Of a stretch of DNA of 37,632 bases, positions 1 to 36,065 are shown one piece after another (the stretch's first letter is position 1; each line of letters opens with the position of its first letter). The position numbers and the translations under genes were made by a program. Origin of the DNA: Acidobacteriota bacterium. Lineage in GTDB: Bacteria; Acidobacteriota; Vicinamibacteria; Fen-336. The stretch covers positions 1 to 37,632 of the forward strand of contig QHVP01000105.1 of assembly GCA_003222295.1 (NCBI GenBank), written 5' to 3'. The notes below the pieces were generated by a model. That model had not been told where the DNA came from, did not search any database, and saw only the letters and a list, made by a program, of their open reading frames with translations.

Positions 1-1
1 C

Positions 2-880
2 GATCTCTGTGTCGCGGACTTCCTTCACTCCATGCCCAACGTGCCGACGGATCGCGGCCTGCCCGTGCTCCTCTTCGAGCACAACGTCGAGCATCTCATC
101 TGGAAACGCCTGGCCGACATCGACACGCAGCCATGGCGGCGGGCCTTGCTGGAGGTCGAGTGGAGGAAGATGCGTCGCCGCGAACTCGAGGCCTGCCGGC
201 GGGCCACGCTCACCGTCGCCGTGTCGGAAGCGGACCGCGACGTGCTCGCCGCCGCTGCCCCCGGTGCCCGTGTTTGCGCGGTGCCGACGGGCGTGGACAC
301 GTCGTACTTCAGCCCGAACGGGTACCAGCCCGTGACCGCGCGCCTCGTTTTCACGGGGGCGCTGGAGTGGTACCCGAACGAAGACGCGATGCTCCACTTC
401 GTGGGCACCATCTTGCCCATCATCCGCGGGCAGGTCGCCGACGTGTCGCTGACCATCGTCGGACGCAAGCCATCGGCGCGCCTGCGGGCATTCGTGGAGG
501 GTGTGCCAGGAATAACCATCGCCGCCGACGTGCCTGACGTGCGTCCCTACATGGGGCAGGCCGCCGTCTACGTCGTGCCGCTGCGGGTGGGTGGAGGGAC
601 GCGCCTCAAGATCTTCGAGGCTCTGGCCATGCGCATGGCCGTCGTCTCCACCACGGTGGGCGCGGAGGGCCTGCCCATGGTGCCCGGCGAGCACTATCTG
701 CGCGCGGACGAGAGCGACCGCTTCGCGGCGGCCGTCGTGGAGCTACTGCGCAACCCGGAGCGGCGAGAGGCCATCGCTCGCGCCGGGCGGCGGCTGGTCG
801 AAGAGCGCTACACCTGGCCCCAGGTGGTGCGCGAGTTCGCCACCCGCTGCGAGGAAGCAGTAGCGGTCCATGCGGGTTAG
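2..880 (+). CDS. Glycosyltransferase family 1 (GT4-type), 5' end outside window
   Basis: The frame is open from the window edge (codons from nt 2). The translation shows the C-terminal GT-B half typical of GT1 enzymes (VYVVPLRVGGGTRLKIFEALAMRMAVVSTTVGAEGL). Stop TAG 878-880 overlaps the next gene by 11 nt. Confidence 0.85.
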   Translation, partial: DLCVADFLHSMPNVPTDRGLPVLLFEHNVEHLIWKRLADIDTQPWRRALLEVEWRKMRRRELEACRRATLTVAVSEADRDVLAAAAPGARVCAVPTGVDTSYFSPNGYQPVTARLVFTGALEWYPNEDAMLHFVGTILPIIRGQVADVSLTIVGRKPSARLRAFVEGVPGITIAADVPDVRPYMGQAAVYVVPLRVGGGTRLKIFEALAMRMAVVSTTVGAEGLPMVPGEHYLRADESDRFAAAVVELLRNPERREAIARAGRRLVEERYTWPQVVREFATRCEEAVAVHAG

Positions 881-2168
881 CGTCTTCGGCCTCGGCTACG
901 TCGGCTGCGTGACCGCGTCCTGCCTCGCCCGCGAAGGGCATGACGTCGTCGGCGTCGACACCAATCCGGACAAGGTCCAGATGGTCAACGCCGGAACCTC
1001 CCCGCTCGTCGAGCCGGGACTCGGAGAGCTGCTGGCGGCGGGGGTCAGGCACCGCCGGCTACGAGCCACTGGTTCGGCGCCGCAGGCGGTGGCGGCGAGC
1101 GACCTCGCCCTCGTGTGCGTCGGGACGCCGAGCCGTCCCAACGGGCAGCTCGACGTCTCCGGCCTCGAGCGCGTGATGGCCGACATCGGCGGCGCCTTGC
1201 GGGATCGGCACGATCCTTTCCAGGTCGTCATCCGCAGCACCATGTTGCCCGGCACCACCGACGCCGTGGTCGTGCCCGCGCTCACCTCCCGCCTCGGAGG
1301 GGCGAGAACACCCGTGGTGCGCGTGGCCGTGAATCCCGAGTTCATGCGCGAGGGATCGTCGCTTCACGACTTCTCCCGCCCCCCTTTCACCCTGGCCGGC
1401 GCCACCGACGCCGAGGCGATCGCCGCCCTGCGCACCCTCTACGCCGGAGTCGAGGCGCCGTTCATCAGCACGGATATCGGGACGGCAGAGATGGTCAAGT
1501 ACGTCTCGAACGCCTTCCTCGCCCTCAAGATCTGCTTCGCCAACGAGGTCGGGGACGTGTGCGAGGCCCTCGGGGTGGACGCCCAGGAGGTGATGCGGAT
1601 CTTCCTGATGGACCGCCGCCTCAGCGTGTCCGAAGCCTATCTGCGCCCGGGCTTCGCCTTTGGTGGCTCCTGCCTGCCCAAGGACGTGCGCGGGCTCCTC
1701 TACGCCGCGCGGAACGCCGACGTGGTGCCAGCCGTGCTTTCCGCGATCCTGCCCTCCAATGAGTCGCAGATCCGGCGAAGGGTGGAGGAGGTCCTGGCCA
1801 CCCGAAAGCGTCGCGTCGGGGTGGTGGGGCTCTCCTTCAAGCCCGGAACGGACGACCTGCGTGAGAGCCCGCTGGTCGCGCTCGTGGAGGCCCTGCTCGG
1901 CAAGGGCTGCGACGTCCGCATCCTGGATCACAACATCTCGCTCGCCCGCCTCGTCGGGGCCAATCGCCGCTACATAGAGGAGGAGATCCCGCACGTGTCA
2001 TCCCTGATGTGCGAGAGCGCGGACGAGCTCCTGGCCCACGCCGAGATCATCGTCGTGGGCCACCGGTCGGAGGACGCGGACGCGGTGCTGGCCGCGATGG
2101 AGCCGCATCACGTCCTCATCGACCTCACGCGGAGTCGGGTGCCCGTGCCCGGCCGCGCGGCGGTATGA
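870..2168 (+). CDS. algD: GDP-mannose 6-dehydrogenase (UDP-glucose/GDP-mannose dehydrogenase family, AlgD-like)
   Basis: 432-aa ORF. It has the N-terminal Rossmann motif MRVSVFGLGYVGCVTASCLA, the catalytic Cys context RPGFAFGGSCLPKDVRGL, and GANRRYIEEEIPHVSSL near the C-terminus. As I recall the sequences, these parallel Pseudomonas AlgD much more closely than Ugd or WecC-type members. Length matches AlgD. Confidence 0.85.
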   Translation: MRVSVFGLGYVGCVTASCLAREGHDVVGVDTNPDKVQMVNAGTSPLVEPGLGELLAAGVRHRRLRATGSAPQAVAASDLALVCVGTPSRPNGQLDVSGLERVMADIGGALRDRHDPFQVVIRSTMLPGTTDAVVVPALTSRLGGARTPVVRVAVNPEFMREGSSLHDFSRPPFTLAGATDAEAIAALRTLYAGVEAPFISTDIGTAEMVKYVSNAFLALKICFANEVGDVCEALGVDAQEVMRIFLMDRRLSVSEAYLRPGFAFGGSCLPKDVRGLLYAARNADVVPAVLSAILPSNESQIRRRVEEVLATRKRRVGVVGLSFKPGTDDLRESPLVALVEALLGKGCDVRILDHNISLARLVGANRRYIEEEIPHVSSLMCESADELLAHAEIIVVGHRSEDADAVLAAMEPHHVLIDLTRSRVPVPGRAAV

Positions 2169-2968
2169 CCGCTCCGCACGGGGTCCCGTCCGACAACCCC
2201 CACCTCCAGGCCCGGGAGTTCTTCGACCGCATCGCCGACGACTATCGCACCCGTTCCCTGACCGCCGTTTACAACGTGAGCTCCCTCAGCTTCCGGCGGC
2301 GCCAGGACACGGTCACGCGCATGCTGCTCCGCACTCCCCCCGGTGGGCTGGTGCTCGACTACGGCATGGGGCCGGCGGTGTTCGGGCCGGCGGCGGCCGC
2401 GCACGGCTTGCGTTACGTCGGTATCGACATCTCGGAGCGCATGGTGCAGATGGCGCGCGAACTTCAGCTGCCCAACGCGGAGTTCCACGTGGGCGACCTG
2501 AACAGCCTCGGCCGCTACACCGCGCAGGCGGACACCGTGCTCTTGATCGGCCTCATCGACTATCTGCAGGAGCCCGGGGACGGACTACGCCGCCTGGCCC
2601 GCTGCGTGAAACCGGGGGGGCGCTTGATCATGTCGTTCCGCAACCACGTCTCCCTGCCGCGGGCGACGCGCAGCGCCGCCAAGCAGGCGTGGCGCCTCTG
2701 GCGGCGAAGCCGCGGCGCGGCGCGCACCGCCTTTGCCGCGCCCGTACTCGAGAACTCGTTCGTGCCCGGCCGCGATCTCGCGCCCGTGCTGAGGGCGGAA
2801 GGCTTCGACGACCCGGTCGTCGAGTTCCTCGACTGCTCGCCCGTGCTCTTCAACCTCCCGTTACCGCGCCGTGTGTGGGAATGGTGGCGCCGGGCGGACG
2901 AGGTCCTGGGCCGCCGCGCCCCGACGCTGCTCTGCGCATCGGGAGTGCTGATGGCAGAGAAGCGCTGA
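2165..2968 (+). CDS. Class I SAM-dependent methyltransferase
   Basis: ATG 2165 overlaps the algD stop (ATGA). It has motif I VLDYGMGPA and VKPGGRLIMSF. The 52 Arg/Gly-rich codons upstream in the tracked ORF (from 2009) overlap algD and were trimmed. Confidence 0.8.
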   Translation: MTAPHGVPSDNPHLQAREFFDRIADDYRTRSLTAVYNVSSLSFRRRQDTVTRMLLRTPPGGLVLDYGMGPAVFGPAAAAHGLRYVGIDISERMVQMARELQLPNAEFHVGDLNSLGRYTAQADTVLLIGLIDYLQEPGDGLRRLARCVKPGGRLIMSFRNHVSLPRATRSAAKQAWRLWRRSRGAARTAFAAPVLENSFVPGRDLAPVLRAEGFDDPVVEFLDCSPVLFNLPLPRRVWEWWRRADEVLGRRAPTLLCASGVLMAEKR

Positions 2969-2984
2969 AGCAGCGCCCACGTCG

Positions 2985-3572
2985 ATGGCCTACGCCTGCC
3001 TGATGTACCACTCGCTGTCCGATGGCCCTCACCCCGACCTTCTGTACCCTCGCTACACCACTACCCGGGCCCGTTTCGAAGAGCACCTGCGCGCCCTGGG
3101 CGGCGACGGCTTCCGCCTGGCTGACTTCCGGGACCTCCGGCGCCGGCTGGATGCGGCGGGGGGCCTCCCCGACCGCTATTGCGTGCTCAGCATCGACGAC
3201 GGCCACCGCAGCGGTCTCGAGATGGCGGAGGTCATGGTCGCGGCGGGGGTCACCGCCACCTTCTTCCTGACCATGGACTATTGCCGGCAGCGCGACGACT
3301 TCCTGAAGCCGGCCGAGGTGCGCGAGCTGGCCGCGGCCGGATTCGACTTCGGGACGCACGGCGCCAGCCACCGCGCGCTCTCGCGCATGCCGCGGCCGCG
3401 GATGCGGGCCGAGCTGGCCGACAGCAAGGCCTGGCTCGAGGACATCCTCGGGGACCCGGTCGAGGCGATGTCCCTGCCCGCCGGACAGGGGGACGACGAC
3501 GTGTACGTCGCCGCCTATGAGTCCGGGTACGGGCTGGTCGGCAACTCGCGCGAGCAGCTGAACGAGCCCTGA
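2985..3572 (+). CDS. Polysaccharide deacetylase (NodB/CE4 family), ending at an in-frame TGA. The same frame continues with coding-like composition to 3749.
   Basis: Motifs seen: MYHSL, LSIDDGHRS, ATFFL, FGTHGASH. After TGA 3570-3572 the same frame stays open for 58 more codons with almost exclusively G/C third positions. It ends in a TGA (3747-3749) that overlaps the next gene's GTG as GTGA. Confidence 0.75.
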   Translation: MAYACLMYHSLSDGPHPDLLYPRYTTTRARFEEHLRALGGDGFRLADFRDLRRRLDAAGGLPDRYCVLSIDDGHRSGLEMAEVMVAAGVTATFFLTMDYCRQRDDFLKPAEVRELAAAGFDFGTHGASHRALSRMPRPRMRAELADSKAWLEDILGDPVEAMSLPAGQGDDDVYVAAYESGYGLVGNSREQLNEP

Positions 3573-3745
3573 CCCGCGCCGCGCCCGGTGAACCGCTTCG
3601 TGGTCCTGGCCGGCCACGGCGCGAGACAGGTGTGCCGGATCGCCGGGGGGTCGCGTGCCTACGTGTGGCGGCGGCGGGCGCGGGCCGCCCTCCTGTATCT
3701 GCCCAAGGTCCTGCTGCGCACCTACGACGCGACCCGCGGCGAACA

Positions 3746-4594
3746 GTGAAGATCACGACGGACTGGCGGCGGCACCTCCACGACATCCGGACGCAGGAGA
3801 TCGAGCTCATCTTCTCGGCCTGCTCGCCGCGTGCCTTCGGCGAAGGCCTGGAGCTGGGGGCGGGCGATGGCTTCCAGAGTGCGCTCCTCAGCCGTTACGT
3901 GGCGCACCTCACGAGCACCGACTATGACGCCGCCATCGGGTCGTTGCCGTCCTCCCCGTCCGTCACCTACCAGGTCGGTGACGCGGAAGAAGTGGACAAG
4001 GCGTTCCCGGCATCCCACTTCGATCTCGTGTTCTCCTCGAACCTGCTCGAGCACGTCCCCGACCCCGTGCAGACGCTGAGAGGCGTCGCCACCATCCTGA
4101 AGGACGAAGGGATTACCATCCACGTGATTCCCAATGTGTTCTGGAAGCTATCCTCGATCGCTCTCTACATGCCCTACCGCTTCGCCACGCTGGTGGAGCG
4201 CATGACGCAGGCGACGCGGATGCAGGAAAGCGGCCACCAGCCCGTCAACAACCCGAAGACGCCGCGGCCGCGGCGATCGTTTCTCGCGCGGCAGCTCTGG
4301 CCGGAGCCGCACGGAGTCTCGAAGACGAACCGCGAGGAACTGCGCGCCTTCTCGCGCTCGCGCTGGCGCGAGGCCTTCGAGCGGGCGGGGCTCAGGGTCA
4401 TCACGATCTCGAGAGGACCGGTCGCTTCCGGGTACGGATTCGGCTTCGACTCCCTGCGAACGGGCCTGCGGCGTCTGGGCCTGGCCTCGGAGTATGTCTA
4501 CGTGGCGGCCAAGGCCGGTCGCACCAGCCCCTACGAAACCTTCTTTCGCAGCGTACGAGCCGGTCCCCTCGGGCGAGCGGAGAGACGATCGTGA
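3746..4594 (+). CDS. Class I SAM-dependent methyltransferase (Methyltransf_11-like)
   Basis: It has motif I LELGAGDGF, FDLVFSSNLLEHVPDP and LKDEGITIHV. I chose GTG 3746 as the start (GTGA overlap) because the tracked start at 3632 lies in Arg/Pro-rich sequence that overlaps the deacetylase frame. Confidence 0.75.
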   Translation: MKITTDWRRHLHDIRTQEIELIFSACSPRAFGEGLELGAGDGFQSALLSRYVAHLTSTDYDAAIGSLPSSPSVTYQVGDAEEVDKAFPASHFDLVFSSNLLEHVPDPVQTLRGVATILKDEGITIHVIPNVFWKLSSIALYMPYRFATLVERMTQATRMQESGHQPVNNPKTPRPRRSFLARQLWPEPHGVSKTNREELRAFSRSRWREAFERAGLRVITISRGPVASGYGFGFDSLRTGLRRLGLASEYVYVAAKAGRTSPYETFFRSVRAGPLGRAERRS

Positions 4595-7470
4595 TCGGCG
4601 GCAGGGCGGAGAGCCGTGATCCGGATACGCCCGGGCGTGGCGCGGCGCTCCGCGCCCCGCGGGTCGCCTTGGCGATCCTCGGCCTCTTCACCCTTGATCC
4701 TCTCCGGGCGGCGCCGTCTCCCCGTCCGACCGCGACCGTCGCCGAGCGCCCGCGCCTGCAGGCGGATACCACTCCTTTCGCGGCGACGACGGCCACCGTG
4801 ATCGTCCGCGCGGGCGACGATCTTCAGGCCGCCCTCGACCTGGCCCGACCCGGCGACGTCCTCGTCCTCCAGGCCGGAGCCACCTTCACCGGTCCCTTCA
4901 CCCTTCCCGAGAAGCGGGGCCAGGGCCCGGCATCATGGATCACCATACGCAGCAGCACCCCGGACACGGCCCTGCCGCCCGGAATCCGAATCCACCCTCG
5001 TCAGGCCGCGCAGCTCGCGCGCCTCGAAGCGGCCTCGGGCTCGGTGATCTCCGCGGCCCCGCGCGCCCACCATTTCCGCCTGGTCGGCCTCGAGCTGCGG
5101 CCGGCCCCGGGGACGTTCCTGTATCAGGTGGTGGACCTCGGTGGGGCCGCATCCTCGGCGGAGGACCTGCCTCGTTACGTCGTCATCGACCGCTGCTACC
5201 TCCACGGCGATCCCGCCCGCAGCGGACGCCGCGGGGTGGCCCTCAACTCCGCAACCTCCGCGGTGGTGGACTCCTACCTGTCCGACTTCAAGGAGCTGGG
5301 CGCCGATTCCCAGGCGATCGCGGGGTGGAACGGCCCCGGCCCGTTCAAGATCGCCAACAACTATCTGGAGGCGGCGGGAGAGAACGTGATGTTCGGCGGG
5401 GCCACCCCGGCCATCGCCGGCCTCGTCCCGTCGGACATCGAGATCCTTGGAAACCATCTGGCCAAGCCGCTGACCTGGCGTGCCGGAGACCCCGCCTTTC
5501 AGGGTGTGAGCTGGTCGGTGAAGAACCTCTTCGAGCTGAAGAACGCACGGCGCGTCCTGATCGACGGCAACCTCATGGAGCACAACTGGGTGCAGTCGCA
5601 GGACGGATTCGCGGTCCTGTTCACGGCGCGAGACGAAGCGGGCGCGGCCCCGTGGGCGGCGGTCGAGGACGTGACCTTCAGCAACAACACGGTCCGTCAC
5701 ACCGGATCGGGGGTCAACCTCATCGGTCACGGCGGAAGGACCGCGGTCACACGCAGGATCCTCATCCGCAACAATCTGTTCGACGATGTGAGCGGCGAGA
5801 GGTGGGGTGGGAGCGGCCGCCTCCTCCAGATGGTGGAAGGGGCGGACGACATCGCCTTCGACCACAACACGGCGCTCCAGACGGGCAGCCTCGTGATCGC
5901 CGACGGTGCGCCCCACGCGCGATTCGCCTTCACCAACAACATCGCGCCCCACAACGCCTACGGGGTGATCGGGAGCGGGAGCGCATCTGGCCTGCCCACG
6001 CTCCGCGCGTTCTTCCCGGGTGCCCGCTTCGAGGGCAATGTCATCGTCGGAGGCCAGGCCGAGAGATATCCGCCGGGAAACTTCTTCGCTCCGTCGCTGG
6101 AAGCGATCGGGTTCGACGGGGCGGCGGGCGACTATCGTCTGGGCGTCACCAGCCCTTATCGGCGAAGCGGCACCGACGGCACGGACCCGGGTGCCGACTT
6201 CAGCGAGCTCCTTGCCGTGGCCGCCGTGCCCAGCGCCTCCTTCGCGATCCCTTCCACGTCGGGGCCGGCGGCCGGGGGCCCTGCCGCGAGGATGTGGAAT
6301 CGAGTCCGCACGCGGGCCCGGGAGGCGGGCTGGCCGCGGGCAGTGTTCTGGTCCGCGGTCGTCCTGCTCGCCTATCCGTATGTCGCCTATCCCCTGCTCA
6401 TCTGGGCCTGGGCCGCCGTGCGTCCGCGACCCCCGCGCATGGGAGCGGAGCCATCGGTGACGGTGGTCATCGTGGCTCATGACGAGGAGGAGCGAGTACA
6501 GGAGCGGATCGATAACGTCCTCGCCCAGGACTATCCGCGGGACCGTCTCGACGTCGTGCTCGCGTCCGACGGCTCTGCCGACCGAACGGCTGAGCGAGCT
6601 CGCGCCCACGGCGGAGCGGGGGTGGAGGTACGGAGCTTCGATCAGAGGCGCGGAAAGCCTTCCGTCCTCAACGACGTCGTCCCGCAGGCCCGTGGTGAGG
6701 TGGTGCTGCTCGCCGACGTCCGGCAGCGCTTCGATGCGGGCACCGTGCGCGCGCTCGTCTCGTGCTTCGCCGATCCGCGCGTCGGGGCCGTGAGCGGGGA
6801 GCTGGTACTCACTTCGCCTTCCGGCGGTCACGGGGTCAGGGATGGTGTCGACCTCTACTGGCGTTACGAAAAGGCGATTCGCCGCCACGAGAGCGTGGTC
6901 GATTCGACGGTCGGGGCCACCGGCGCCATCTACGCCATCCGCCGCGACCTGTTCGAGCCGCTGCCGCCGGACACGGTCCTGGACGACGTCCTCATCCCGC
7001 TGCGCATCGTCGGCCGCGGATATCGCGTGCTCTTCGAGCCGCGCGCCGTCGCCCACGACGCGGCGGCATTCGGCTCGCGCCAGGAGTTCGGGCGCAAAGT
7101 CCGCACCCTGGCCGGGAACTTCCAGCTCTTCTCCCGACACCCGTGGGTCCTGGGGCCCTTCCGGAACCGCCTTTGGTTCCAGACCGTCTCCCACAAGGCC
7201 TTGCGCCTCTTGACTCCGCTCCTCCTCGCCGCCGCCTTCGCCGCGAACATCCTTCTCGCGCGGACGCCCTTCTATCGCCTGCTGCTCGCCGGGCAGGCAT
7301 CGTTCTACGCGGCCGCCCTGGCGGGCGCGGCGCTCGGAAACGGAAGGCGCCGCCTTCCGCTGCTTTCCGTGCCCTTTGTGATCTGCCTGCTCAGCTGGGC
7401 GACGGTCGTCGGCTTCTTCCGTTTCCTCGCCGGCCGGCAGCGCGTGACGTGGGATCGGGCGTCCGCGTAG
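4591..7470 (+). CDS. Fusion protein: signal/anchor, right-handed beta-helix (pectin-lyase-fold-like) domain, TM segment, glycosyltransferase family 2 core, three C-terminal TM segments
   Basis: A single 959-codon frame starting at GTG 4591 (GTGA overlap). The N-terminal half has a repetitive beta-helix-like pattern (NNYLEAAGENVMFGG, GNHLAKP, DGNLMEHN, SNNTVRH, RNNLFDD, DHNTALQ, TNNIAPHN) and ends GDYRLGVTSPYRRSGTDGTDPGADF. The C-terminal half has GT2 motifs VTVVIVAHDEE, ASDGSADRT, LLADVRQ, GATGAIYAIRRDLF, LDDVLIPLRIVGRGY and RKVRTLAGNFQ. Hydrophobic helices flank the GT2 core. Confidence 0.8.
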   Translation: MIGGRAESRDPDTPGRGAALRAPRVALAILGLFTLDPLRAAPSPRPTATVAERPRLQADTTPFAATTATVIVRAGDDLQAALDLARPGDVLVLQAGATFTGPFTLPEKRGQGPASWITIRSSTPDTALPPGIRIHPRQAAQLARLEAASGSVISAAPRAHHFRLVGLELRPAPGTFLYQVVDLGGAASSAEDLPRYVVIDRCYLHGDPARSGRRGVALNSATSAVVDSYLSDFKELGADSQAIAGWNGPGPFKIANNYLEAAGENVMFGGATPAIAGLVPSDIEILGNHLAKPLTWRAGDPAFQGVSWSVKNLFELKNARRVLIDGNLMEHNWVQSQDGFAVLFTARDEAGAAPWAAVEDVTFSNNTVRHTGSGVNLIGHGGRTAVTRRILIRNNLFDDVSGERWGGSGRLLQMVEGADDIAFDHNTALQTGSLVIADGAPHARFAFTNNIAPHNAYGVIGSGSASGLPTLRAFFPGARFEGNVIVGGQAERYPPGNFFAPSLEAIGFDGAAGDYRLGVTSPYRRSGTDGTDPGADFSELLAVAAVPSASFAIPSTSGPAAGGPAARMWNRVRTRAREAGWPRAVFWSAVVLLAYPYVAYPLLIWAWAAVRPRPPRMGAEPSVTVVIVAHDEEERVQERIDNVLAQDYPRDRLDVVLASDGSADRTAERARAHGGAGVEVRSFDQRRGKPSVLNDVVPQARGEVVLLADVRQRFDAGTVRALVSCFADPRVGAVSGELVLTSPSGGHGVRDGVDLYWRYEKAIRRHESVVDSTVGATGAIYAIRRDLFEPLPPDTVLDDVLIPLRIVGRGYRVLFEPRAVAHDAAAFGSRQEFGRKVRTLAGNFQLFSRHPWVLGPFRNRLWFQTVSHKALRLLTPLLLAAAFAANILLARTPFYRLLLAGQASFYAAALAGAALGNGRRRLPLLSVPFVICLLSWATVVGFFRFLAGRQRVTWDRASA

Positions 7471-7471
7471 C

Positions 7472-8317
7472 GTGTCCACCTCTGTGCGGATCGGCCTCGC
7501 CCAGCTCTTGGTGGAAGGGGGCGAGGCCGCGCGCAACCTCGACCGTGCGGCGGCCCTGGTCGCGCAGGCGGCCGCGTTGGGTTGCCAGATCGTCCTGCTC
7601 CCGGAGTGCCTCGACCTCGGCTGGACCCATCCGAGCGCGATGCACGAGGCCCAGCCCATCCCGGGTCCGATCAGCGAACGGCTGGGTGCGCTCGCGCGGG
7701 AGTTCGGCATCTTCGTCTGCGGGGGACTGACGGAGCGCGAGGGCGACCGCACCTACAACACCGCCGTCCTTCTCGACCCCGCGGGCGCGCTGCTCCTGAA
7801 GTACCGGAAGATCAATCTCCTCGTCGTGGAGCAGCCGTACTACTCGGTGGGCCGCTCGCTTTCGGTGGTGGAGACCGCGCTGGGCGTGGTCGGCGTGAAC
7901 GTCTGCGCGGACAACTACGCCGACTCCCTCGCCATCGGCCACACCCTGGCCCGGATGGGATCGCAGATCATCCTCTCGCCCTCGTCCTGGACGGTCGACT
8001 ACTCGATCGGCGAGGGGGAGGATCCGTACGGACAGAAGTGGATCGCGCCGTACACGCTGCTGGCGCGTCTCTACGACCTCGTGATGGTCGGCACGACCAG
8101 CGTCGGCTACATCGTGGGCGGACCCTACGAGGGAAAGAAGATGGTCGGCTGCTCGCTGGTCGTGAACAAGGACGGGGTGCTGGCCCGCGGCCGCTACCTG
8201 GAGTTCGCGAGCGACCTCGTGACGGTCGACGTGCCCGTCCCCGTGCGGCCCGAAAAGGGGACCGCCATCGGCGAGATGCTGAAGCGGAAGGGCTACCGCT
8301 TTGACGGACTGGCTTGA
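7472..8317 (+). CDS. Carbon-nitrogen hydrolase (nitrilase superfamily)
   Basis: GTG start one nt after the upstream stop. The Glu-Lys-Cys triad contexts are IVLLPECLD, LLKYRKINL and VGVNVCADN. At 281 aa the length is typical for the family. Confidence 0.85.
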   Translation: MSTSVRIGLAQLLVEGGEAARNLDRAAALVAQAAALGCQIVLLPECLDLGWTHPSAMHEAQPIPGPISERLGALAREFGIFVCGGLTEREGDRTYNTAVLLDPAGALLLKYRKINLLVVEQPYYSVGRSLSVVETALGVVGVNVCADNYADSLAIGHTLARMGSQIILSPSSWTVDYSIGEGEDPYGQKWIAPYTLLARLYDLVMVGTTSVGYIVGGPYEGKKMVGCSLVVNKDGVLARGRYLEFASDLVTVDVPVPVRPEKGTAIGEMLKRKGYRFDGLA

Positions 8318-9696: not shown

Positions 9697-9706
9697 CGCG
9701 CCTTTC

Positions 9707-10676
9707 ATGGCAGCCCGATCTGACATCCCCTAGCCACATCTTCATCACCGGAGGCGCCGGCTTCATCGCCTCCCACCTCATCGAGAGGCTCGTCGATCGC
9801 CATCGCATCACCATCTACGACAACCTCCACCGCAACGCGTTCCGGTACACGCGCCTGCAGGGCCACCGCAACCTGACCTTCGTCGAAGGCGACGTCCTGG
9901 ACGCGGAGAAGCTCGCCGCTTCCATGGCCGGCGCCGACACCTGCGTGCATGCGGCCGCCATCGCCGGCATCTACAGCGTCGGCAAGAAGGCCACGCTGAC
10001 CATGAAGGTGAACTTCCTCGGCTCGTATCACGCGCTGGAGGCGGCGGTGCGCAACGGCGTCCGCCGCTTCGTCGACTTCTCCACGAGCGAGGTCTACGGC
10101 CCCTTCGTGTACCGCGGCAAGGAGACGGACGAGACGACGCTGGGGCCGGTGGGGGAGAAGCGTTGGGTCTACGCCGTCAGCAAGCTCGCGGGCGAGCATT
10201 TCGCTCACTGCTACGCCGAGGAGTACGGCCTCGCCGTCACCTCCGTGCGTCCCTTCAACGTGTACGGCCCCCGCCAGATCGGAGAGGGCGCGGTACAGCA
10301 GATGGTGCGGCGGGCCCTCCGCGACGAGGACATCACCGTGTTCGACGACGGGACCCAGATCCGATCCTGGTGCTACGTGACCGACTTCGTGGACGGCCTC
10401 GAGAAGGCCCTCGTCCGCGAGGACGCCGCCAACGAGTCGTTCAACCTCGGCAACCCGCAGGCGACCATTACCGTGCTCGGCCTCGCCCAGACGATCGTGC
10501 GCATGACGGGTTCGCGCTCCCGCGTCGTGTTCAAGCCGCACCCGGGTCCCGAGGTCCAGATGCGCGTCCCCGACATCTCGAAGGCGCGCAGGCGGCTGGG
10601 TTTCGACCCCCGGGTCGGCCTCGAGGAAGGCCTGGGACGGTGCATCGAGTGGTACCGGGAGAACCCCGACGCCTAG
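9707..10676 (+). CDS. NAD-dependent epimerase/dehydratase (extended SDR), with its start region out of frame (ATG 9707 is +1 relative to the body)
   Basis: The body frame encodes IFITGGAGFIASHL (Rossmann motif, nt 9738-9779), YAVSKLAGE (YxxxK) and RPFNVYGPRQ. That frame has no ATG, GTG or TTG between the upstream stop (9624-9626) and 9924. ATG 9707 sits just after a promoter-like element but runs into TAG at 9731. Confidence 0.8.
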
Positions 10677-11597
10677 ATGAAGCTCCTCGTCGCCGGGGCG
10701 TCCGGGTTTCTCGGCCGGAACCTGCTCCTGTCGCTGCCGAGGCAGGCCGCGATTGTCGCCACCTACCGCCAATCCGCCGACTTCCCCGAGTTCCTGCGCA
10801 CGAAGGACCTGGGTCACGTGCGCGCGCTGCGCGCCGACCTGTCGCGGGTGGAGGACGCGGGGGCGGTGGGTGCCGCGGGGCCGTTCGAGGCGTGCGTCTT
10901 CCTGGCCGCCAACGGCGATCCCGCGCGCTCGGTCGAGCAGCCCGGCCTCGACCTCGCCTGGAACTGCGCCAGTCTCGTGAACGTCCTGGAGCACTGCGCC
11001 TTCGGGACCCTGGTGTTCCTGTCCTCGGGCGCGGTGTACGACGGCTTCCAGGGGAAGGTGTCGCCGCAATGCTGTCCGCGGCCAAGGCTGCCCTATGCCG
11101 TCTCCAAGCTCGCCGCCGAGCGCTATCTCGAGCACTTCCAGGACCGCGGAAAGGTCGGGCGGGCGGTGGCGGTCCGATTCTTCGGCGCCTATGGGCCCTA
11201 CGAGCCGCCGCGCAAGGTCTATACCAAGCTGGTGCGGCGGTTCGCGATGGAGGGCGCGCGGCAATTCACCATTCGCGGCGACGGGAAGAACCTGATCGAC
11301 GCCATGTACGTCTCCGACGCGGTGCGCGCCCTGCAGCTCCTGCTCGAAGCGCCGCCGGCGCCCTTCGCGGTCGTGGACCTCTGCTCCGGCCAACCCGTGA
11401 CCCTGACCGAGCTGGTGCGCGAGGCCGGCCGCGCCTTCGGCCTCGAGCCCGAGATCGCGTACGAAGGCATGGTGCCCGAGCGCATCCAGTTCCGCTCGAC
11501 CGACGGCACGATGGCGGAGAGGTACGGCTTCACTCCCGCCGTCGGGTTGGAGGAGGGTCTGAGGCTCCTCCACGACCATCTCCGGAAGGCGAGCTGA
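10677..11597 (+). CDS. NAD-dependent epimerase/dehydratase family protein (SDR)
   Basis: The ATG directly abuts the upstream TAG. Motifs seen: MKLLVAGASGFLGRNL (Rossmann), YAVSKLAAERY (YxxxK), RFFGAYGP. Confidence 0.8.
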   Translation: MKLLVAGASGFLGRNLLLSLPRQAAIVATYRQSADFPEFLRTKDLGHVRALRADLSRVEDAGAVGAAGPFEACVFLAANGDPARSVEQPGLDLAWNCASLVNVLEHCAFGTLVFLSSGAVYDGFQGKVSPQCCPRPRLPYAVSKLAAERYLEHFQDRGKVGRAVAVRFFGAYGPYEPPRKVYTKLVRRFAMEGARQFTIRGDGKNLIDAMYVSDAVRALQLLLEAPPAPFAVVDLCSGQPVTLTELVREAGRAFGLEPEIAYEGMVPERIQFRSTDGTMAERYGFTPAVGLEEGLRLLHDHLRKAS

Positions 11598-11604
11598 AGG
11601 CACG

Positions 11605-13032
11605 ATGGCCGACTCCGTCGTGATCCTCGGGGCGGGTCCCGCCGGTCTGGCTTGCGCCCATCGCATACTCCGTGACTCTGGCAAGCGGGTCGTCATCGTG
11701 GACAAGGCGCCGGTCGTCGGGGGCGCCGGGGCAAGCTTCGGCTGGAAGGGCCACACCCTGGACTATGGTCCTCACGCCTTCCACACCCGCGGCGACGAGC
11801 CGGAGCAACTCGTGCGGTCGCTGTTCGCCTCCGACCCGGAGGTCCTGCTCGAAGGGCGCAAGCAGGTGCACGTCTACCTGAAGGGAAAGCGGTTCCGGTA
11901 CCCCCTGCAGGTTCGGGAGGCCCTGCTCAAGTTCAACCCGATCCTGAGCCTTCGCATCATCGCGGAGTTCGTGATCACCTCCATCTTCCACGCGCTGGTG
12001 TCGATCCCCATCGACAACTTCGAGAACTGGGGACGCACGCGGTTCGGGGGAACCCTCTACCAGATGAGCTTCGGCGACTACACGGAAAAGGTCTGGAAGA
12101 CGAGCCCGGCCAAGATCTCGGAGAAGTTCGCCTCCGAAAAGATCCAGGGCTTCAACTTCGTGAACCTCGTGAAGCGCCTCCTGCGCATCGGCGGCCAGGT
12201 CACCGAACCCTATTACCAGACGTGGATCTACCACCGCCACGGTTCCGGCCGCATCTATGACCGGATGGCGCAGGAGATCCGGGCCCGGGGCGGGGAGATC
12301 CTCCTGGGCGCCGACATCAAGGCCATCCCCATCGACGACAAGCGCGTACGCTGCGTCTCCATCGAGCAGGGAGGCGCGCCGCGCGGGTTGCCCTGCGAAA
12401 CCCTGGTGAGCACCATCGGCCTGCCCCAGCTCGTGAAGCTGATGGGGGACGGCGTTCCTTTCTCGGTGCGCCACGCCGCTTCCAAGCTCGCCTACACCTC
12501 GCTCGTCCTCGTCTACCTGGAGTTCGACGTGGAACGGGTCAGCGACGACCACTGGTTCTACCTGCTCGAGAAGGAGTTCGCGTTCAATCGTGTCACCGAG
12601 CAGAAGAACCTGAGCCCGCACACCATGGAGCCGGGCAAGACCGTTCTCAGCCTCGAGCTCACCTGCCGCGTCGGTGACGACCTCTGGCGCAAGTCGGACG
12701 AGGAGGTCTTCGAGCTTGCCAAGCAGGACTGCCGCCGGATCCACTTCGTGCCCGTGGAGCGCATCACCGGTTACGTCGTCAAGCGCGTCCCCAACGTCTA
12801 CGAGATCTACTACAAGCACTTCGATCAGCATGCCGACGTCGTGCTCGGCCACCTCCGCGAGCTCGAAAACGTGGTGAGCATCGGGCGCCGCGGCCTTTTC
12901 CTGCAGGGCGACATGCACCAGGCGGTGGAGATGGGGCTGGCCATGGGTTCGCTCCTCGCCGCCGAGACCCCGGATCGTGACGGCGTGCGGCGCTTCTACG
13001 AGCGCTACGTCCGTTACGTCGACCACAACTAG
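11605..13032 (+). CDS. FAD-dependent oxidoreductase (amine-oxidase / UDP-galactopyranose-mutase-like fold)
   Basis: It has the N-terminal dinucleotide-binding motif VVILGAGPAGLACA...VVIVDKAPVVGG, followed by DYGPHAFHT. Length is 475 aa. The exact activity cannot be told from the sequence. Confidence 0.7.
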   Translation: MADSVVILGAGPAGLACAHRILRDSGKRVVIVDKAPVVGGAGASFGWKGHTLDYGPHAFHTRGDEPEQLVRSLFASDPEVLLEGRKQVHVYLKGKRFRYPLQVREALLKFNPILSLRIIAEFVITSIFHALVSIPIDNFENWGRTRFGGTLYQMSFGDYTEKVWKTSPAKISEKFASEKIQGFNFVNLVKRLLRIGGQVTEPYYQTWIYHRHGSGRIYDRMAQEIRARGGEILLGADIKAIPIDDKRVRCVSIEQGGAPRGLPCETLVSTIGLPQLVKLMGDGVPFSVRHAASKLAYTSLVLVYLEFDVERVSDDHWFYLLEKEFAFNRVTEQKNLSPHTMEPGKTVLSLELTCRVGDDLWRKSDEEVFELAKQDCRRIHFVPVERITGYVVKRVPNVYEIYYKHFDQHADVVLGHLRELENVVSIGRRGLFLQGDMHQAVEMGLAMGSLLAAETPDRDGVRRFYERYVRYVDHN

Positions 13033-13034
13033 GA

Positions 13035-15368
13035 ATGGCCACCGCCGGCCTGTTCCTGGCCGTCGTCCTCGTGGCCGGCCTCTGCGGCTACGGGATCGTG
13101 AGCCTGCTCCTGCCCGAGGAGTACCGGGACGAGTTCGCCCTGCTGCTGATGCCGCCCGTCGGGTACTGCTTCTACTCGTGGGTCGCCTTCGACGTGTCGG
13201 GCAGCTTTGTGCTTCCCGGATACGACGTCACGATCATCGCCCTCGCCGTCGTCGCGTTTCTCGGCCTGGCCTCCCTCGTGCACCGGCGCCCCACGATGGC
13301 CATGGTGCGCGGCCTCTGGCCGACGCTGCCGGTCAGCCTCGCCGCCACCGCGATCGGACTCTGGCCCCTCTTCGCCGTGGGCGCGACGACCTTCCTCGGA
13401 GCCGTGAACCCCGACTACACCGCGACCCTGGTCGACCTCCACTACCTGGAAACGCACCCCGTGCAGGCGGCGCCTCCCTCCCGGACGCAGTACACCTATT
13501 CCTACTTCCATAACGTCATGGGCGGCATCGGCGTCGCCGCGCGTTTCGGATGCTCCTACTTCGTGATGATGGTGCGCGCGCTGCTCGGGCTCCCGCACCG
13601 TACCGCACTCACCGTGTGCATCGGCCTGTTCCTCTTCTGCATGTCGCCCTCGGTCTATTTCATGGCGCGGGTGGCCTTCGGGCTTCGCCGGAGGGCGGCC
13701 CTGATCGCGGCCGCCCTCATCATGCTCCTGAGCCCGGTCACCATGAGCTTCGTCTACTCCTACGTTGGCCAGAACTCGGGCCTGGGGGTTCTGCCCGCCG
13801 TGATCACGCTGGCCTACGTCGCGGTGCGCCGGCCGGGTTTCCGCACCGTCCTCCTGGCCACGCTGATGGTGAACGGCCTCTACGTCATGTACACGGCCAT
13901 GGTGCCGTACGTGCTGGCCCCCGTGGGCGTCGTCGCCGTCTACCTCCTGCTGACGCGCCGCCTCCGCTGGCGTGCGGCCGTCGGCATGGCCGCCGGGTTC
14001 GTGGCCGTGAGCCTCGTCCTCAACTGGGGCCTCCTGCCGTTCCTGGGGCGGGCCTTCAAGGGCTGGAACCGCCTCGTGACCCAGACCCTCCAGGGGCAAT
14101 ACTTCATCGACTTCCTGACCGAGCAATTCCTGCCCCTCTTTCTGGGGCTCATCAGCTACCCGACGAGCGCCTCCCTCTACGCACCGTACCTGACCGACAA
14201 GGGCCGCCTCCTCCTGTACTTCGTCACGGCCACCGTGATCGTCACCATGGTTGCGGTCTTCGTACGCTGGGCCCGCAGGCAACCCGATAGGCCGGCGGCG
14301 GCCCTGGCTCTCGCCTCCGCCACCATCTATTCAATCGTCTGGTACACGTATACCTTCCGGCGGCCCTACGGCTACGCGCTCTTCAAGATGTGCTCGTGGC
14401 TGCAGTTCGTCTACGTGATGCCCCTCGCCTACGCGCTCGACGAGGCTTCGGGATGGGGCCTCGCCCGCCGCGGAATCCGCCGCTGGGCCACGCGGGCCGT
14501 GTGGCCGATCTGCGTGTTCGTGCTCTTCGCGGATGCCATCTCCACCGCCCACCTGTCGCGCCTGAGCCTTGGCCACGACACCCGGCGGGGGATGATCGTC
14601 AATCTCTACGAGATGTCCGGGAACAACGACTACCTGGAGCTGGCGGACGAGGTGGGACGCCGCGTGGGCCCGCTCCGCTCGGTAGGGATGAGCTTCGTCG
14701 ACTCGATCCAGAACGAGTGGGTCGGCTACTACCTTCGCGACCTGCGCACGTCCCTCTTGGGTCACTACATCATCCCCGCCGACGACGAGAACCTGCCCAG
14801 CATCATCTCGCGCTGGGTGACCGACTACTACGGGAACGGAAACGTGGACTTCAATTACTACTTCCACGGTGCCACCGACGACTACTACCTGACCTGGAGC
14901 GACCGCCACCTGAACCGCGACATCGTGGAGCGCGACCTGCCCCCGCCGATGTGGGAGAACGGGACCTTCCGCCTGCAGCGCGCGGCCGACTGTCCGGGAT
15001 TCATCTTCACGGGGCGCGGCTGGTACCGCCTCGAGTTCCGCCACACCTGGGACTGGTGGTGGCCGGACCGCTTCCGGTGGACGGCGGAAGGCGGCGAGAT
15101 CTACATGCTTCGCGGCAAGGCCGGCCAGCCCTATCGCCTGTCCTTCTATGGGATCGTCGGCCACGGTCTCCGGAGCGAGAGCCGCACCGTCGAGCTGTGG
15201 ATGAACACCCGGAAGTTCGACGAGCTGACGATCACGGCGGCGGCGCGCGTCGTGTCCAAGCCCTTCTATCCGAGCGGTGGTGCCGATCGCCTCGTCATCC
15301 GCGTCAAGGAGCGCGTGCAGCCGCAGGCGGCGACTACCGCCGCCTCAACCTCCTGGTCGCGGGGGTGA
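13035..15368 (+). CDS. Large polytopic membrane protein with an extracytoplasmic C-terminal domain (candidate GT-C-type glycosyltransferase or polymerase). It probably continues into 15365-15796 after a frame change.
   Basis: The first ~480 aa contain more than 10 hydrophobic segments. These are followed by a soluble Trp/Tyr-rich region (GWYRLEFRHTWDWWWPDRFRWTAEGGEIYML). I recognised no family-specific catalytic motif. Confidence 0.7.
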   Translation: MATAGLFLAVVLVAGLCGYGIVSLLLPEEYRDEFALLLMPPVGYCFYSWVAFDVSGSFVLPGYDVTIIALAVVAFLGLASLVHRRPTMAMVRGLWPTLPVSLAATAIGLWPLFAVGATTFLGAVNPDYTATLVDLHYLETHPVQAAPPSRTQYTYSYFHNVMGGIGVAARFGCSYFVMMVRALLGLPHRTALTVCIGLFLFCMSPSVYFMARVAFGLRRRAALIAAALIMLLSPVTMSFVYSYVGQNSGLGVLPAVITLAYVAVRRPGFRTVLLATLMVNGLYVMYTAMVPYVLAPVGVVAVYLLLTRRLRWRAAVGMAAGFVAVSLVLNWGLLPFLGRAFKGWNRLVTQTLQGQYFIDFLTEQFLPLFLGLISYPTSASLYAPYLTDKGRLLLYFVTATVIVTMVAVFVRWARRQPDRPAAALALASATIYSIVWYTYTFRRPYGYALFKMCSWLQFVYVMPLAYALDEASGWGLARRGIRRWATRAVWPICVFVLFADAISTAHLSRLSLGHDTRRGMIVNLYEMSGNNDYLELADEVGRRVGPLRSVGMSFVDSIQNEWVGYYLRDLRTSLLGHYIIPADDENLPSIISRWVTDYYGNGNVDFNYYFHGATDDYYLTWSDRHLNRDIVERDLPPPMWENGTFRLQRAADCPGFIFTGRGWYRLEFRHTWDWWWPDRFRWTAEGGEIYMLRGKAGQPYRLSFYGIVGHGLRSESRTVELWMNTRKFDELTITAAARVVSKPFYPSGGADRLVIRVKERVQPQAATTAASTSWSRG

Positions 15369-15796: not shown

Positions 15797-16389
15797 CCTT
15801 GCGACGCTTTCGGCGCGCGCCCGCCCGGCCCCTCGCGCTCGCCGCGGCCTTGCTCACCGCGGCCTGTGGCAGCCGCTATCACGTGGCCGAGTGCCCAGGG
15901 GACGCGATCCCCGACCCACGGGAGTTGCAGCGCCGGCCGGGATTCGACCGGCTCCGTTACTTCCGCGGGACCGACCGGCCCACCGATCAGGTCGACTACG
16001 AGATCTGGGCGGACGGCCAGTTCGAGTTCACGGCCACCCTCACCTACCACTATCCGGCCAGCGGCGGCCACCGGAGCGACTGTGCACGCGCGGCGGCCCT
16101 CACCGTGAAGCGGCCACTGTCCGACGCGGCAAGGGAGCTCCAAAAGGAGTTCATCGGTGTCTTCGCCAGGCATCTCGGCCGCGATCTCGCGGTGGTGGCC
16201 CTGACCGCGGCCGCCTACGAGGCCATGGAGGGAGACGGCTTTCTCCAGTCACAGGCCCGCTCGTGGGGGCCTCTGGTGAGCGAGGTTGTGGGAGTCGATA
16301 GCTACCACCGCGGAGAGTTCGTCACCGTCGCATTCTACGAACCGGACTACTACCGGTCGGCGCGACCGGTCCTGAACGCCTCCCCGTGA
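15793..16389 (+). CDS. Hypothetical secreted protein or lipoprotein
   Basis: TTG start overlapping the upstream stop (TTGA). The signal-like N-terminus RRFRRAPARPLALAAALLTAACGS contains a lipobox-like TAAC. I recognised no family. Confidence 0.55.
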   Translation: MTLRRFRRAPARPLALAAALLTAACGSRYHVAECPGDAIPDPRELQRRPGFDRLRYFRGTDRPTDQVDYEIWADGQFEFTATLTYHYPASGGHRSDCARAAALTVKRPLSDAARELQKEFIGVFARHLGRDLAVVALTAAAYEAMEGDGFLQSQARSWGPLVSEVVGVDSYHRGEFVTVAFYEPDYYRSARPVLNASP

Positions 16390-17237
16390 CCGCTCTCGAG
16401 GCATCCATGCCACGGGCGGGTACGATGGTGGGTGCGGGCACGGGGACGGCGGTGCGTAGCCTCGTTCGCCACCGTCATCTTCTGTGGCAGCTCACTCGTC
16501 GAGAGCTCGCCGCGCGGTACCGCGGGTCCGTCCTCGGGTACCTCTGGTCTTTCCTGATCCCCGTCCTGATGCTGGGCGTCTATACATTCGTCTTCAGCGT
16601 CGCCTTCCGGGCCCGCTGGCCGGGACCAAGCACCAGCCGCGTCGAGTTCGCGCTCATCCTGTTCAGCGGGCTGGTCGTGTTCGCCCTGTTCGCGGAACCC
16701 CTGAACCGGTCTCCCACGCTCATCGTCTCGCAGCCCAACTACGTCAAGAAGATCGTCTTTCCGCTCGAGGTGCTTCCCTGCGTCGCCCTGGCGACGGCAT
16801 TTCTCAACGCGGCGGTCGGGTTCATCATCCTTATCGTGGCCAGCGCCTTCCTGCACGGAGAGGTGCCGTGGACGGTGGTGCTCCTGCCGGTTGCATTGTT
16901 GCCGCTGGTGCCTCTCTGTCTCGGCCTCTCATGGTTCCTGGCCGCCCTCGGCGTGTTCTTGCGCGACATCGCGCCGCTCGTGACGGTATTGACGCAAGTG
17001 CTCATGTTCATGACTCCGGTCTTCTATCCGTTGGCGGCGATTCCCGAACCGTACCGCCGCATCATCGGCCTCAACCCGCTCGCCGTGACGGTCGAGGAGG
17101 TGCGCGGCCTCGTCTTCTACGGCCGCATCCCGGATTGGACGGTCTACATGGCGTGCCTGGCCGTGGGGCTGGCGGTGGCCTGGCTGGGCCTCGCTTTCTT
17201 CCAGCGGACGCGGCGCGGTTTCGCGAATGTCCTCTGA
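16386..17237 (+). CDS. wzm: ABC-2 type polysaccharide/O-antigen export permease (Wzm/TagG/KpsM family)
   Basis: It has the family signature LTRRELAARYRGSVLGYLWSFLIPVLMLGVY followed by six hydrophobic segments. GTG 16386 overlaps the upstream stop; ATG 16407 is an alternative start. Confidence 0.85.
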   Translation: MTALEASMPRAGTMVGAGTGTAVRSLVRHRHLLWQLTRRELAARYRGSVLGYLWSFLIPVLMLGVYTFVFSVAFRARWPGPSTSRVEFALILFSGLVVFALFAEPLNRSPTLIVSQPNYVKKIVFPLEVLPCVALATAFLNAAVGFIILIVASAFLHGEVPWTVVLLPVALLPLVPLCLGLSWFLAALGVFLRDIAPLVTVLTQVLMFMTPVFYPLAAIPEPYRRIIGLNPLAVTVEEVRGLVFYGRIPDWTVYMACLAVGLAVAWLGLAFFQRTRRGFANVL

Positions 17238-19421: not shown

Positions 19422-19435
19422 CCGCGGCCTTCTGC

Positions 19436-21948: not shown

Positions 21949-22022
21949 TCCGTGCCTCTTGCTTCCGCCGGCCAGGGCGGAATCCGGATTATAAGGTCCG
22001 CCACGGCCGCGCACGGTACGCG

Positions 22023-31546: not shown

Positions 31547-34344
<2,798 letters not shown>

Positions 34345-36007: not shown

Positions 36008-36065
36008 TCGTCCAGATCGTACCTTCCGCGCGGGCCGCGCGCACCGTGGCGCGTAGAATCCGGCG

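Follow-up and report, generated by a model that had tools for sequence, protein, structure and literature searches.

A beta-helix domain fused to a membrane glycosyltransferase and its AlgD-like neighbour in an Acidobacteriota contig

In the alginate machinery of Pseudomonas and Azotobacter (AlgD, Alg8, Alg44, AlgG, AlgL, AlgX, AlgK, AlgE), an AlgD-type dehydrogenase, a membrane glycosyltransferase of family 2 (GT2) and a periplasmic right-handed beta-helix follow a common logic, in which the polymer is modified or cut outside the membrane. The same three ingredients meet in the DNA considered here, a stretch of 37,632 nucleotides (nt) from an Acidobacteriota bacterium (contig QHVP01000105.1 of assembly GCA_003222295.1), hereafter called the window. 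A single open reading frame (ORF) at 4591..7470 on the forward strand joins a beta-helix to a GT2, and an AlgD-type GDP-mannose 6-dehydrogenase is encoded at 870..2168 (+). We describe the frame as the fused form of a conserved gene pair and read its product, tentatively, as a mannuronate transferase that acts on a lipid-linked glycan and carries a tethered polymer-processing enzyme. The likeness to the alginate machinery has limits. Pfam scans of the submitted window ORFs, several of which matched nothing, gave no PilZ, TPR scaffold, outer-membrane porin or AlgI/J/F-type domain, and ALGX was found only in the locus of one relative (P0002). The beta-helix is without DPHD, and the related loci carry glycosyltransferases of family 4 (GT4), AsnB-like enzymes and sometimes a Wzx-type flippase gene.

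Processive GT2 synthases (BcsA, hyaluronan synthase, chitin synthase, NodC, PgaC) share with the window GT2 a GT-A domain set between transmembrane segments and an interface helix. They have the acceptor-stacking Trp of QxxRW and a DxD motif, whereas the window GT2 has R-K-V-R-T and DxR, as well as fewer transmembrane helices than the channel-forming enzymes. Nor does the window GT2 show the LxxRW motif of Alg8. NodC, with one N-terminal and three C-terminal transmembrane helices, has the same topology. Another point of comparison is PcManGT of Pyrobaculum calidifontis (PDB 6YV7-6YV9), whose 'minimal cellulose-synthase-like fold' is alike in its GT-A core, interface helix and three C-terminal transmembrane helices (PMC10569066). 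PcManGT binds a GDP-sugar, employs Asp223 as general base (PMC12595478) and belongs to an archaeal N-glycan pathway using dolichol-linked acceptors (PMC8993221). Doubt has been cast on its identity as a mannosyltransferase, and AglC-like transfer of a uronic acid onto a dolichol-linked sugar has been suggested (PMC8993221). Unlike the protein described here, it has no N-terminal transmembrane helix and no extracytoplasmic domain.

Right-handed beta-helices of similar length are known from GH136 LnbX, the PL6 alginate lyases and chondroitinase B, the PL31 enzyme PsAly (PMC6796002) and tailspike depolymerases. Both folds and the general logic are, in short, already known. Our literature searches found no described beta-helix-GT2 fusion, gene pair or corresponding beta-helix family, nor any account of a PEP-CTERM locus with a GDP-mannose dehydrogenase. 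The fusion and the pairing are apparently undescribed, and public annotations are generic.

Architecture and topology of the fused frame

The G+C content of the window is about 70%, and long ORFs are consequently plentiful by chance. The frame at 4591..7470 runs for 959 codons with no internal stop. Its G+C at third codon positions (GC3) lies between 0.76 and 0.94 and exceeds that of the other two positions in almost all 150-nt segments from 4575 to 7499, for which reason we regard the frame as coding throughout and not as a chance product of high G+C. An antisense ORF at 4933..7752 (-), of 939 amino acids (aa), was rejected as such a product, having the wrong GC3 phase and no family match. 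A further antisense ORF at 9705-11756 (-) (683 aa) likewise overlaps real genes in the wrong GC3 phase, matches no family and is an artefact of the 70% G+C. The fused gene starts with a GTG that shares nucleotides with the stop codon of the methyltransferase gene before it (GTGA), and the downstream gene begins 2 nt past the stop of the fused gene. A look-up of the exact 959-aa sequence in the databases returned no identical record.

A preliminary description, made from the letters of the window, had read this frame as uninterrupted and had proposed five elements in order: a hydrophobic N-terminus, a beta-helix, a transmembrane helix, a GT2 core and three further transmembrane helices. The frame is indeed uninterrupted in the window, and Pfam, hydropathy and AlphaFold2 recover all five elements in that order. 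At the N-terminus (residues 1-41; 4591..4713), an 11-residue hydrophobic region (VALAILGLFTL, residues 26-36, nt 4666-4698) is preceded by an Arg-rich n-region, and a comparably short hydrophobic stretch occurs within the first ~70 residues of 105 of 113 homologs. By its sequence, this N-terminus looks like a Sec-type signal peptide and not a long anchor. The right-handed parallel beta-helix, recognised by AlphaFold2 and Foldseek, occupies 4795..6234, with rungs over residues ~69-500 (~430 residues) and a C-terminal cap extending to ~548. It is followed by a disordered, poorly conserved tether rich in Pro, Ala, Gly and Arg (residues 549-580; 6235..6330), for which the predicted local distance difference test (pLDDT) falls below 50.

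The first transmembrane helix (residues 581-610; 6331..6420) is indicated by the AlphaFold2 model and by hydropathy, and the charge statistics of the family orient it N-out/C-in. Beyond it lie the cytoplasmic GT-A catalytic domain (6451..7062), the interface helices (7075..7152), which hold E832..R835-K-V-R838-T839 in the place of QxxRW, and three C-terminal transmembrane helices (residues 862-888, 893-915 and 923-947; 7174..7431). The membrane part of the GT2 predicted by hydropathy and AlphaFold2 thus amounts to four transmembrane helices and one interface helix, the latter spanning residues 829-854 in the model. AlphaFold2 returned a mean pLDDT of 89.5 and a predicted template modelling score (pTM) of 0.62 for the full-length protein, and a pLDDT of 94 and a pTM of 0.94 for the N-domain alone. 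In these models both halves are confidently folded, with no set orientation of one to the other predicted.

That the beta-helix lies outside the membrane and the GT2 inside, as had also been proposed, is supported from three sides. Firstly, across the 113 homologs the net charge is +0.3 in the 20 residues before the first transmembrane helix, +2.5 in the 15 residues after it and +2.9 in the loop at 915-921, which under the positive-inside rule makes the GT2 cytoplasmic and leaves the N-domain outside. Secondly, as described above, the N-termini of the family resemble signal peptides. Thirdly, proteins of ~1050 aa (P0014, P0021) consist of a tandem duplicate of the ~480-residue module behind a signal peptide and nothing else. 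The beta-helix proteins of the split form described below have no transmembrane segment, and several end in a conserved Cys pair.

A conserved gene pair, its fused form and the AlgD-like gene

The same fusion is represented in the databases by more than 100 proteins of 880-990 aa, which align over 92-98% of the query with identities of 52-82%. They derive mostly from metagenome-assembled genomes (MAGs) of Acidobacteriota/Vicinamibacterales and are annotated merely as generic GT2. To place them among their relatives, one genome per GTDB species was scanned, and our own hidden Markov models for both halves were run on 81 fetched loci. The single fused ORF was found in Vicinamibacterales, in other Acidobacteriota, and in one Acidimicrobiia and one Solibacteraceae MAG. 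Adjacent genes, beta-helix first and GT2 second, were found in about 15 loci (Pseudohongiella, Sulfurifustis, Spongiibacter, Polarisedimenticolia, Methylomirabilota, Nitrospiraceae, Natronospirales). In some loci, including that of the complete genome of Nitrospira moscoviensis, the GT2 lies 0.7-4 kb downstream of the beta-helix gene. The reverse order occurs in two adjacent loci with a more divergent GT2 and in a few more at a spacing of 0.8-6 kb, and beta-helix genes also occur without a GT2, often as tandem paralogs (Blastocatellia). The pair of a beta-helix gene and a transmembrane GT2 gene extends over at least six phyla, and the window ORF is its fused form.

The preliminary description had viewed the beta-helix as an added module, and its occurrence as a separate adjacent gene in about 15 loci of other phyla agrees with this view. 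The accompanying suggestion, that an internal in-frame ATG at 6292 (M568) could start a stand-alone GT2, fared less well. A Met within the 30 residues before the first transmembrane helix is present in only 28 of the 113 homologs, and the two relatives at 82% identity, P0001 and P0002, carry Leu at the position of M568. As the Met is not a conserved start, the ATG was ruled out both as a relic and as an alternative start.

A contig from another metagenome assembly (L082) matches positions 1-6357 of the window at 99.65% identity, with 22 mismatches and no gaps. Codon 578 (nt 6322-6324), which is GAG in the window, is TAA in this contig (L082:6455-6457), five codons upstream of the first transmembrane helix and near a GTG at codon 583. 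Of seven amino-acid differences in the fused gene, six are located in the linker, and L082 breaks off 30 nt past the TAA. The stop and the clustered linker substitutions suggest a strain-level polymorphism between fused and split forms. The change from GAG to TAA takes two substitutions, and hence points to real divergence and not to a one-base error in either assembly. As relatives at 82% identity are fused, the fused state is taken to be ancestral here, and the split form of L082 is either a recent variant or an artefact of the contig end.

These observations also bear on the proposal that the organism makes two separate proteins, TAA being the true state of codon 578 and GAG a minority variant or an assembly error. 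The near-identical contig speaks for this proposal over all 6357 nt of its overlap, as do three loci (L011, L014, L018) in which the two halves are split by one in-frame stop. Against it stand P0001, P0002 and the more than 100 other proteins that are fused without a stop, the two substitutions needed, and the position of the TAA near a contig end, where assemblies are least reliable; we consider it quite improbable. Read-through of the single stops in L011, L014 and L018 was also entertained and rejected, as three of about 15 split loci do not exceed the chance expectation of one in three. The preliminary description had set its fusion against the case of two genes parted by a stop. Such a stop does occur in some lineages and in L082, whereas the more than 100 fused homologs are free of it. 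Fusion and fission are evidently cheap in evolutionary terms. The uninterrupted frame holds for the window and is polymorphic or unverified at the level of strains, where a check of the reads is needed.

The third member of the arrangement is the AlgD-like gene. Over its full length, the product of 870..2168 matches the GDP-mannose 6-dehydrogenase of P. aeruginosa (PDB 1mfz) at 411 bits (E 5e-122), compared with 244 bits for the best UDP-glucose dehydrogenase, and it has the catalytic motif GGSCLPKD. The comparison with PDB overturns the assignment as a UDP-glucose dehydrogenase given by the best NCBIfam equivalogs, bears out the AlgD-like label under which the gene had first been described, and together with synteny makes the gene a probable source of GDP-mannuronate. 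Orthologs at 50-68% identity occur in 33 loci and mostly end within a few hundred nt of the beta-helix start. Where at least 2 kb of upstream sequence was available, the AlgD-like gene immediately preceded the beta-helix part in 15 of the 25 loci of fused or adjacent type, and in some others it precedes a stand-alone beta-helix gene. On this sequence evidence, a link of the pair to mannuronate is well supported.

Probable roles of the two halves

The catalytic core of the membrane half is recognised by PF00535 (residues 624-788; E 4e-15; 56.5 bits against a cut-off of 23.3) and by PF13641 (46.2 bits, above the curated threshold of 27). Its nearest solved relative is PcManGT, which aligns over residues ~600-903 (phmmer E 5e-24; profile E 1e-30; Foldseek E 1e-17 with a target TM-score of 0.78), at an identity of merely ~25% and with its own function unsettled (PMC8993221). 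The best NCBIfam matches, PgaC/IcaA and MftF, are far below cut-off, and no family named for the mannuronan synthase Alg8 was among the NCBIfam matches.

Invariant residues of the GT2 are D660, D664, K689, D709-x-R711-Q712 and D798-D799. The last pair aligns with the Asp-Asp pair of PcManGT, at the position of the general base. In the place of DxD stands D709-A/V-R711-Q712, invariant in 31 of 31 close GT2s, where PcManGT keeps DAD; no D.D motif exists anywhere within residues 600-830 of the window protein. The place of QxxRW is held by an invariant R835-K-x-R838-T839. Neither Q..RW nor L..RW occurs in the window GT2, and Q..RW was found in just one of the 113 homologs. A further invariant motif, S867-H868-K869..R872..P876, lies at the cytoplasmic entry of the transmembrane bundle, and PcManGT is without this S-H-K..R motif. 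All these features are identical in fused and split forms.

The preliminary description had cast the GT2 as an enzyme that might both polymerise and translocate, with the beta-helix modifying the product. Under this explanation, a four-transmembrane GT2, probably oligomeric, would polymerise mannuronate from GDP-mannuronate and pass the chain through the membrane, and the beta-helix would epimerise or cleave it at the exit, the whole being a condensed system of alginate-like, synthase-dependent kind. The order of AlgD-like gene, beta-helix and transmembrane GT2 is conserved across phyla and, with a fusion that crosses the membrane, finds its most direct account here. The fold is cellulose-synthase-like, and the best NCBIfam matches, for all their distance from cut-off, are PgaC/IcaA and MftF. 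A further periplasmic partner could be supplied by a secreted protein of ~650-740 aa encoded convergently just downstream of the GT2 (L002:12822-14876 (-), L001:12918-14870 (-) and 25 further loci). This protein, which we refer to by its shorter length of ~650 aa, has, behind a signal peptide, a globular part that contains Cys, a linker rich in Pro and, at the C-terminus, a module of ~150 aa. It occurs in 24 of 30 fused-or-adjacent loci and in none of 42 loci with a lone beta-helix. No relative of it was found in Pfam, NCBIfam or PDB, and no homolog in the window.

Much of the evidence nevertheless runs the other way. The enzyme has only four transmembrane helices; 112 of 113 homologs lack QxxRW with its acceptor-stacking Trp, and DxR stands in for DxD; PcManGT is nearer than BcsA, hyaluronan synthase, PgaC or any other synthase; and the Pfam scans found none of the alginate-type accessory domains named at the outset. 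GT4s are found in most loci with enough flanking sequence (those of TIGR03087-like type in 43 loci), and a Wzx-type flippase gene in about 13 of 81, joined by Wzy_C in one (L002). Polymerisation and export by the GT2 itself keeps some weight in our estimation and is less likely than not.

A third explanation would make the GT2 a polyprenyl-phosphate-sugar synthase akin to GtrB, ArnC or DPMS, which would form undecaprenyl-phosphate-mannuronate for flipping and use outside, with the beta-helix joining in the periplasmic step. The combination of a GT2 with an interface helix and C-terminal transmembrane helices suits such an enzyme, DPMS and GtrB-type structures are among the weaker matches, and the invariant basic S-H-K..R patch at the membrane entry could bind a lipid phosphate. 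We hold it very improbable, given that PcManGT and the synthases match better than DPMS, that the recurring ORF clusters examined include no conserved GT-C partner of the ArnT/GtrC type, and that no beta-helix glycosyltransferase with lipid-linked donors is known.

Turning to the exported half, the Foldseek comparison of the N-domain with PDB finds a GH136 lacto-N-biosidase (E 4e-7), alginate lyases and chondroitinase B of PL6 (E 4e-6 to 1e-4), phage tailspike depolymerases, PL31 PsAly, PL9 and GH87. All share ~12% identity with the query, and the leading matches have query-normalised TM-scores mostly of 0.4-0.55. By fold, its nearest neighbours degrade glycans, and several (PL6, PL31) act specifically on uronates. 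In the PDB profile search, sequence likeness was confined to the N-terminal cap (PsAly 6kfn, E 1e-5; PL6, E 0.1-0.4), and Pfam and NCBIfam yielded only the generic PF13229, below cut-off. An AlgG-like role, which had been suggested at first, does not agree with these results: the epimerase motif DPH[DE] occurs in the N part of none of the 113 homologs, and neither AlgG nor AlgE is among the top 50 PDB matches of the Foldseek search.

The N-domain belongs to a large unnamed family that has no Pfam model of its own. An exhaustive search recovered 8,682 clusters (50% identity) at E <= 1e-3 and 3,654 at E <= 1e-30. The proteins are 511 to 1987 aa long, and some members have additional Big_7, CBM6, CBM35 or fn3 modules. 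Over 244 diverse members, conservation of at least 93% was seen at R133, E168, R201, H205, R214, N219, Q241, N256, N257, E260, E264, N265, D282, K292, W296, W308, K311, N312, E315, K317, R321, E330, W333, Q337 and W355, and an Asn ladder is conserved at 288/327/366/395/426/450/483. Basic, acidic and aromatic residues between 201 and 337 cluster on successive rungs. We read this cluster as fitting an active-site groove for an acidic glycan, and the domain as a predicted glycan-cleaving or -epimerising enzyme. Invariant K292, K311, K317, R321, E260, E264 and N265 are at most putative counterparts of the catalytic residues and cation site of PL6 (Lys/Arg) or PL31 (Tyr/Lys).

Duplications occur in this family. 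Tandem copies within one secreted protein were seen in P0014, P0021, P0027 and P0069, and paralogous genes in arrays of two or three chiefly in Blastocatellia, the loci L054, L057, L070, L072, L075 and L076 being among the cases of duplication.

The same data may be read without any catalysis, the beta-helix serving as a carbohydrate-binding guide or scaffold (compare BcsB or NosD-type proteins) that holds the glycan near the membrane machinery. The structural matches are weak and include NosD and the adhesin PfbA, and no known catalytic motif can be assigned. Yet the top matches are enzymes, some family members bear CBM6 and CBM35 modules of their own, as enzymes do, and about 25 polar residues invariant over 244 members on successive rungs (201-337) are typical of an active-site groove, so that a purely binding role seems barely probable to us.

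The explanation we favour, at slightly short of an even call, is that of a mannuronate transferase working on a lipid-linked glycan, combined with a tethered periplasmic polymer-processing enzyme. One polypeptide spanning the inner membrane would hold two enzymes of an exopolysaccharide pathway. A Sec-type signal would export the ~480-residue beta-helix, and the disordered tether of ~30 residues would link it to the transmembrane helix. On the cytoplasmic face, the PcManGT-like GT2 would take mannuronate from GDP-mannuronate and attach one residue per repeat unit to a polyprenyl-linked glycan that sits in the small transmembrane bundle. Other proteins, of Wzx/Wzy or Wzm/Wzt type, would export and polymerise the glycan, and the membrane-tethered beta-helix may trim, release or epimerise the mannuronate-containing polymer in the periplasm, much as AlgL, BcsZ, PslG and PelA process their own polymers outside. 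A non-processive transferase is suggested by the small transmembrane bundle, the lack of QxxRW and DxD, the closer kinship to an enzyme with lipid-linked acceptors, and the presence of other glycosyltransferases, accompanied in some loci by a flippase gene and in the window by an ABC exporter.

Several points weigh against this favoured explanation. A GT2 that carried the chain to the other side by itself would be a more direct reason for fusion or tight adjacency across the membrane. BcsA, hyaluronan synthase and Chs1 are found by Foldseek over the glycosyltransferase, interface-helix and transmembrane region (E 1e-12 to 1e-8; 415-500 columns; target TM-scores of 0.31-0.55). From the pTM of 0.62 for the full-length model it follows that no fixed docking of the two halves on each other is predicted. 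The mannuronate donor is one that we infer from synteny alone. Three genes (two for methyltransferases and one for a polysaccharide deacetylase) separate the AlgD-like gene from the ORF in the window, an insertion shared by an 82%-identity relative, and some loci (e.g. L002) have no AlgD-like gene within 10 kb. Finally, the structural matches of the beta-helix (TM-scores of ~0.5, ~12% identity) are weak and thus accommodate a hydrolase, a lyase, an epimerase or mere binding alike.

Neighbouring genes and implications

Recurrent neighbours were found by clustering all ORFs of the fetched loci. AsnB-like amidotransferases occur in 49 loci, with TIGR03108 (XrtA/PEP-CTERM) as their best or near-best NCBIfam match, below cut-off; polysaccharide deacetylases and FemAB-like genes recur as well. 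With their AsnB-like and GT4 neighbours nearest to TIGR03108 and TIGR03087, and with deacetylase, FemAB-like, Wzx and Wzy_C proteins recurring, the loci recall the exopolysaccharide loci of XrtA/PEP-CTERM systems. The scores, 509 bits against a cut-off of 817 for TIGR03108 and 196 against 317 for TIGR03087, fall below the curated XrtA-family cut-offs, and no exosortase or PEP-CTERM protein came to light, although no search was aimed at them, so the likeness is one of relationship and not of membership. Heparinase II/III-like proteins, often fused to a GT4, were found in 41 loci. A weak Alginate_lyase match accompanies such domains at L001:1955-5212 (+), L003:1314-4572 and L039:3057-5264, and a lyase-fold domain fused to a GT4 of cytoplasmic type is an odd pairing for a biosynthetic locus.

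Within the window, a Wzm/Wzt ABC exporter, its Wzt with a C-terminal domain binding glycan ends, is encoded at 16386-18588 (+), and methyltransferase genes lie at 2009-2968, 3632-4594, 18665-19711, 21022-22815 (-) and 26301-27305 (-). The exporter and the unusually many methyltransferases suggest a second, terminally capped glycan made from the same window. Two AsnB-like glutamine amidotransferases (22023-23933 (-) and 27124-29073 (-)) have TIGR03108 as best or second-best match, below cut-off; in the 49 related loci this family adjoins the AlgD-like gene, and its members may amidate uronic acids. DegT and UDP-GlcNAc 2-epimerase genes are also present. At the right end of the window, an ATP sulfurylase (33280-34308 (-)) and a TauE/HAD fusion (34400-36229 (-)) hint at sulfation chemistry near the glycan locus.

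Some further genes may repay attention. The ORF at 13035-15368 (+) (777 aa) has a good coding signal and no Pfam or NCBIfam match; an ORF of ~930 aa without a Pfam match stands at the same position, after an amine-oxidase gene, in the P0002 locus. Two genes past the fused gene, the P0002 locus encodes a 340-aa SGNH/ALGX protein with the fold of AlgX/AlgJ-type O-acetyltransferases, and also a GINT1_N/GH43-like protein. Where that locus has these two, the window has a CN-hydrolase and a WbuX-type amidotransferase.

The fused gene and its relatives define a conserved three-part module that crosses phyla, composed of a GDP-mannose dehydrogenase, an exported beta-helix and a small membrane GT2. The module predicts mannuronate-containing polymers beyond Pseudomonas, Azotobacter and the brown algae. 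Its beta-helix family is a candidate for a new family of glycan lyases, hydrolases or epimerases, and its GT2 offers a bacterial counterpart to the 'half-tunnel' fold of PcManGT. Together with the near-identical strain in which one stop codon undoes it, the fusion may serve as a natural test of whether cytoplasmic glycosyltransferase and periplasmic processing enzyme need physical coupling. More far-reaching, and in our view rather unlikely, is a self-sufficient synthase-dependent system of AlgD-like protein, beta-helix and four-transmembrane GT2, in which the oligomeric GT2 would polymerise and export a chain of polymannuronate type for the tethered beta-helix to epimerise or cut. If this were true, a minimal alginate-like pathway would be widespread in Acidobacteriota, Nitrospirota, Methylomirabilota and some Gammaproteobacteria. 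Acidobacteriota and, among them, Vicinamibacterales abound in soil, and hardly any work has addressed their exopolysaccharides.

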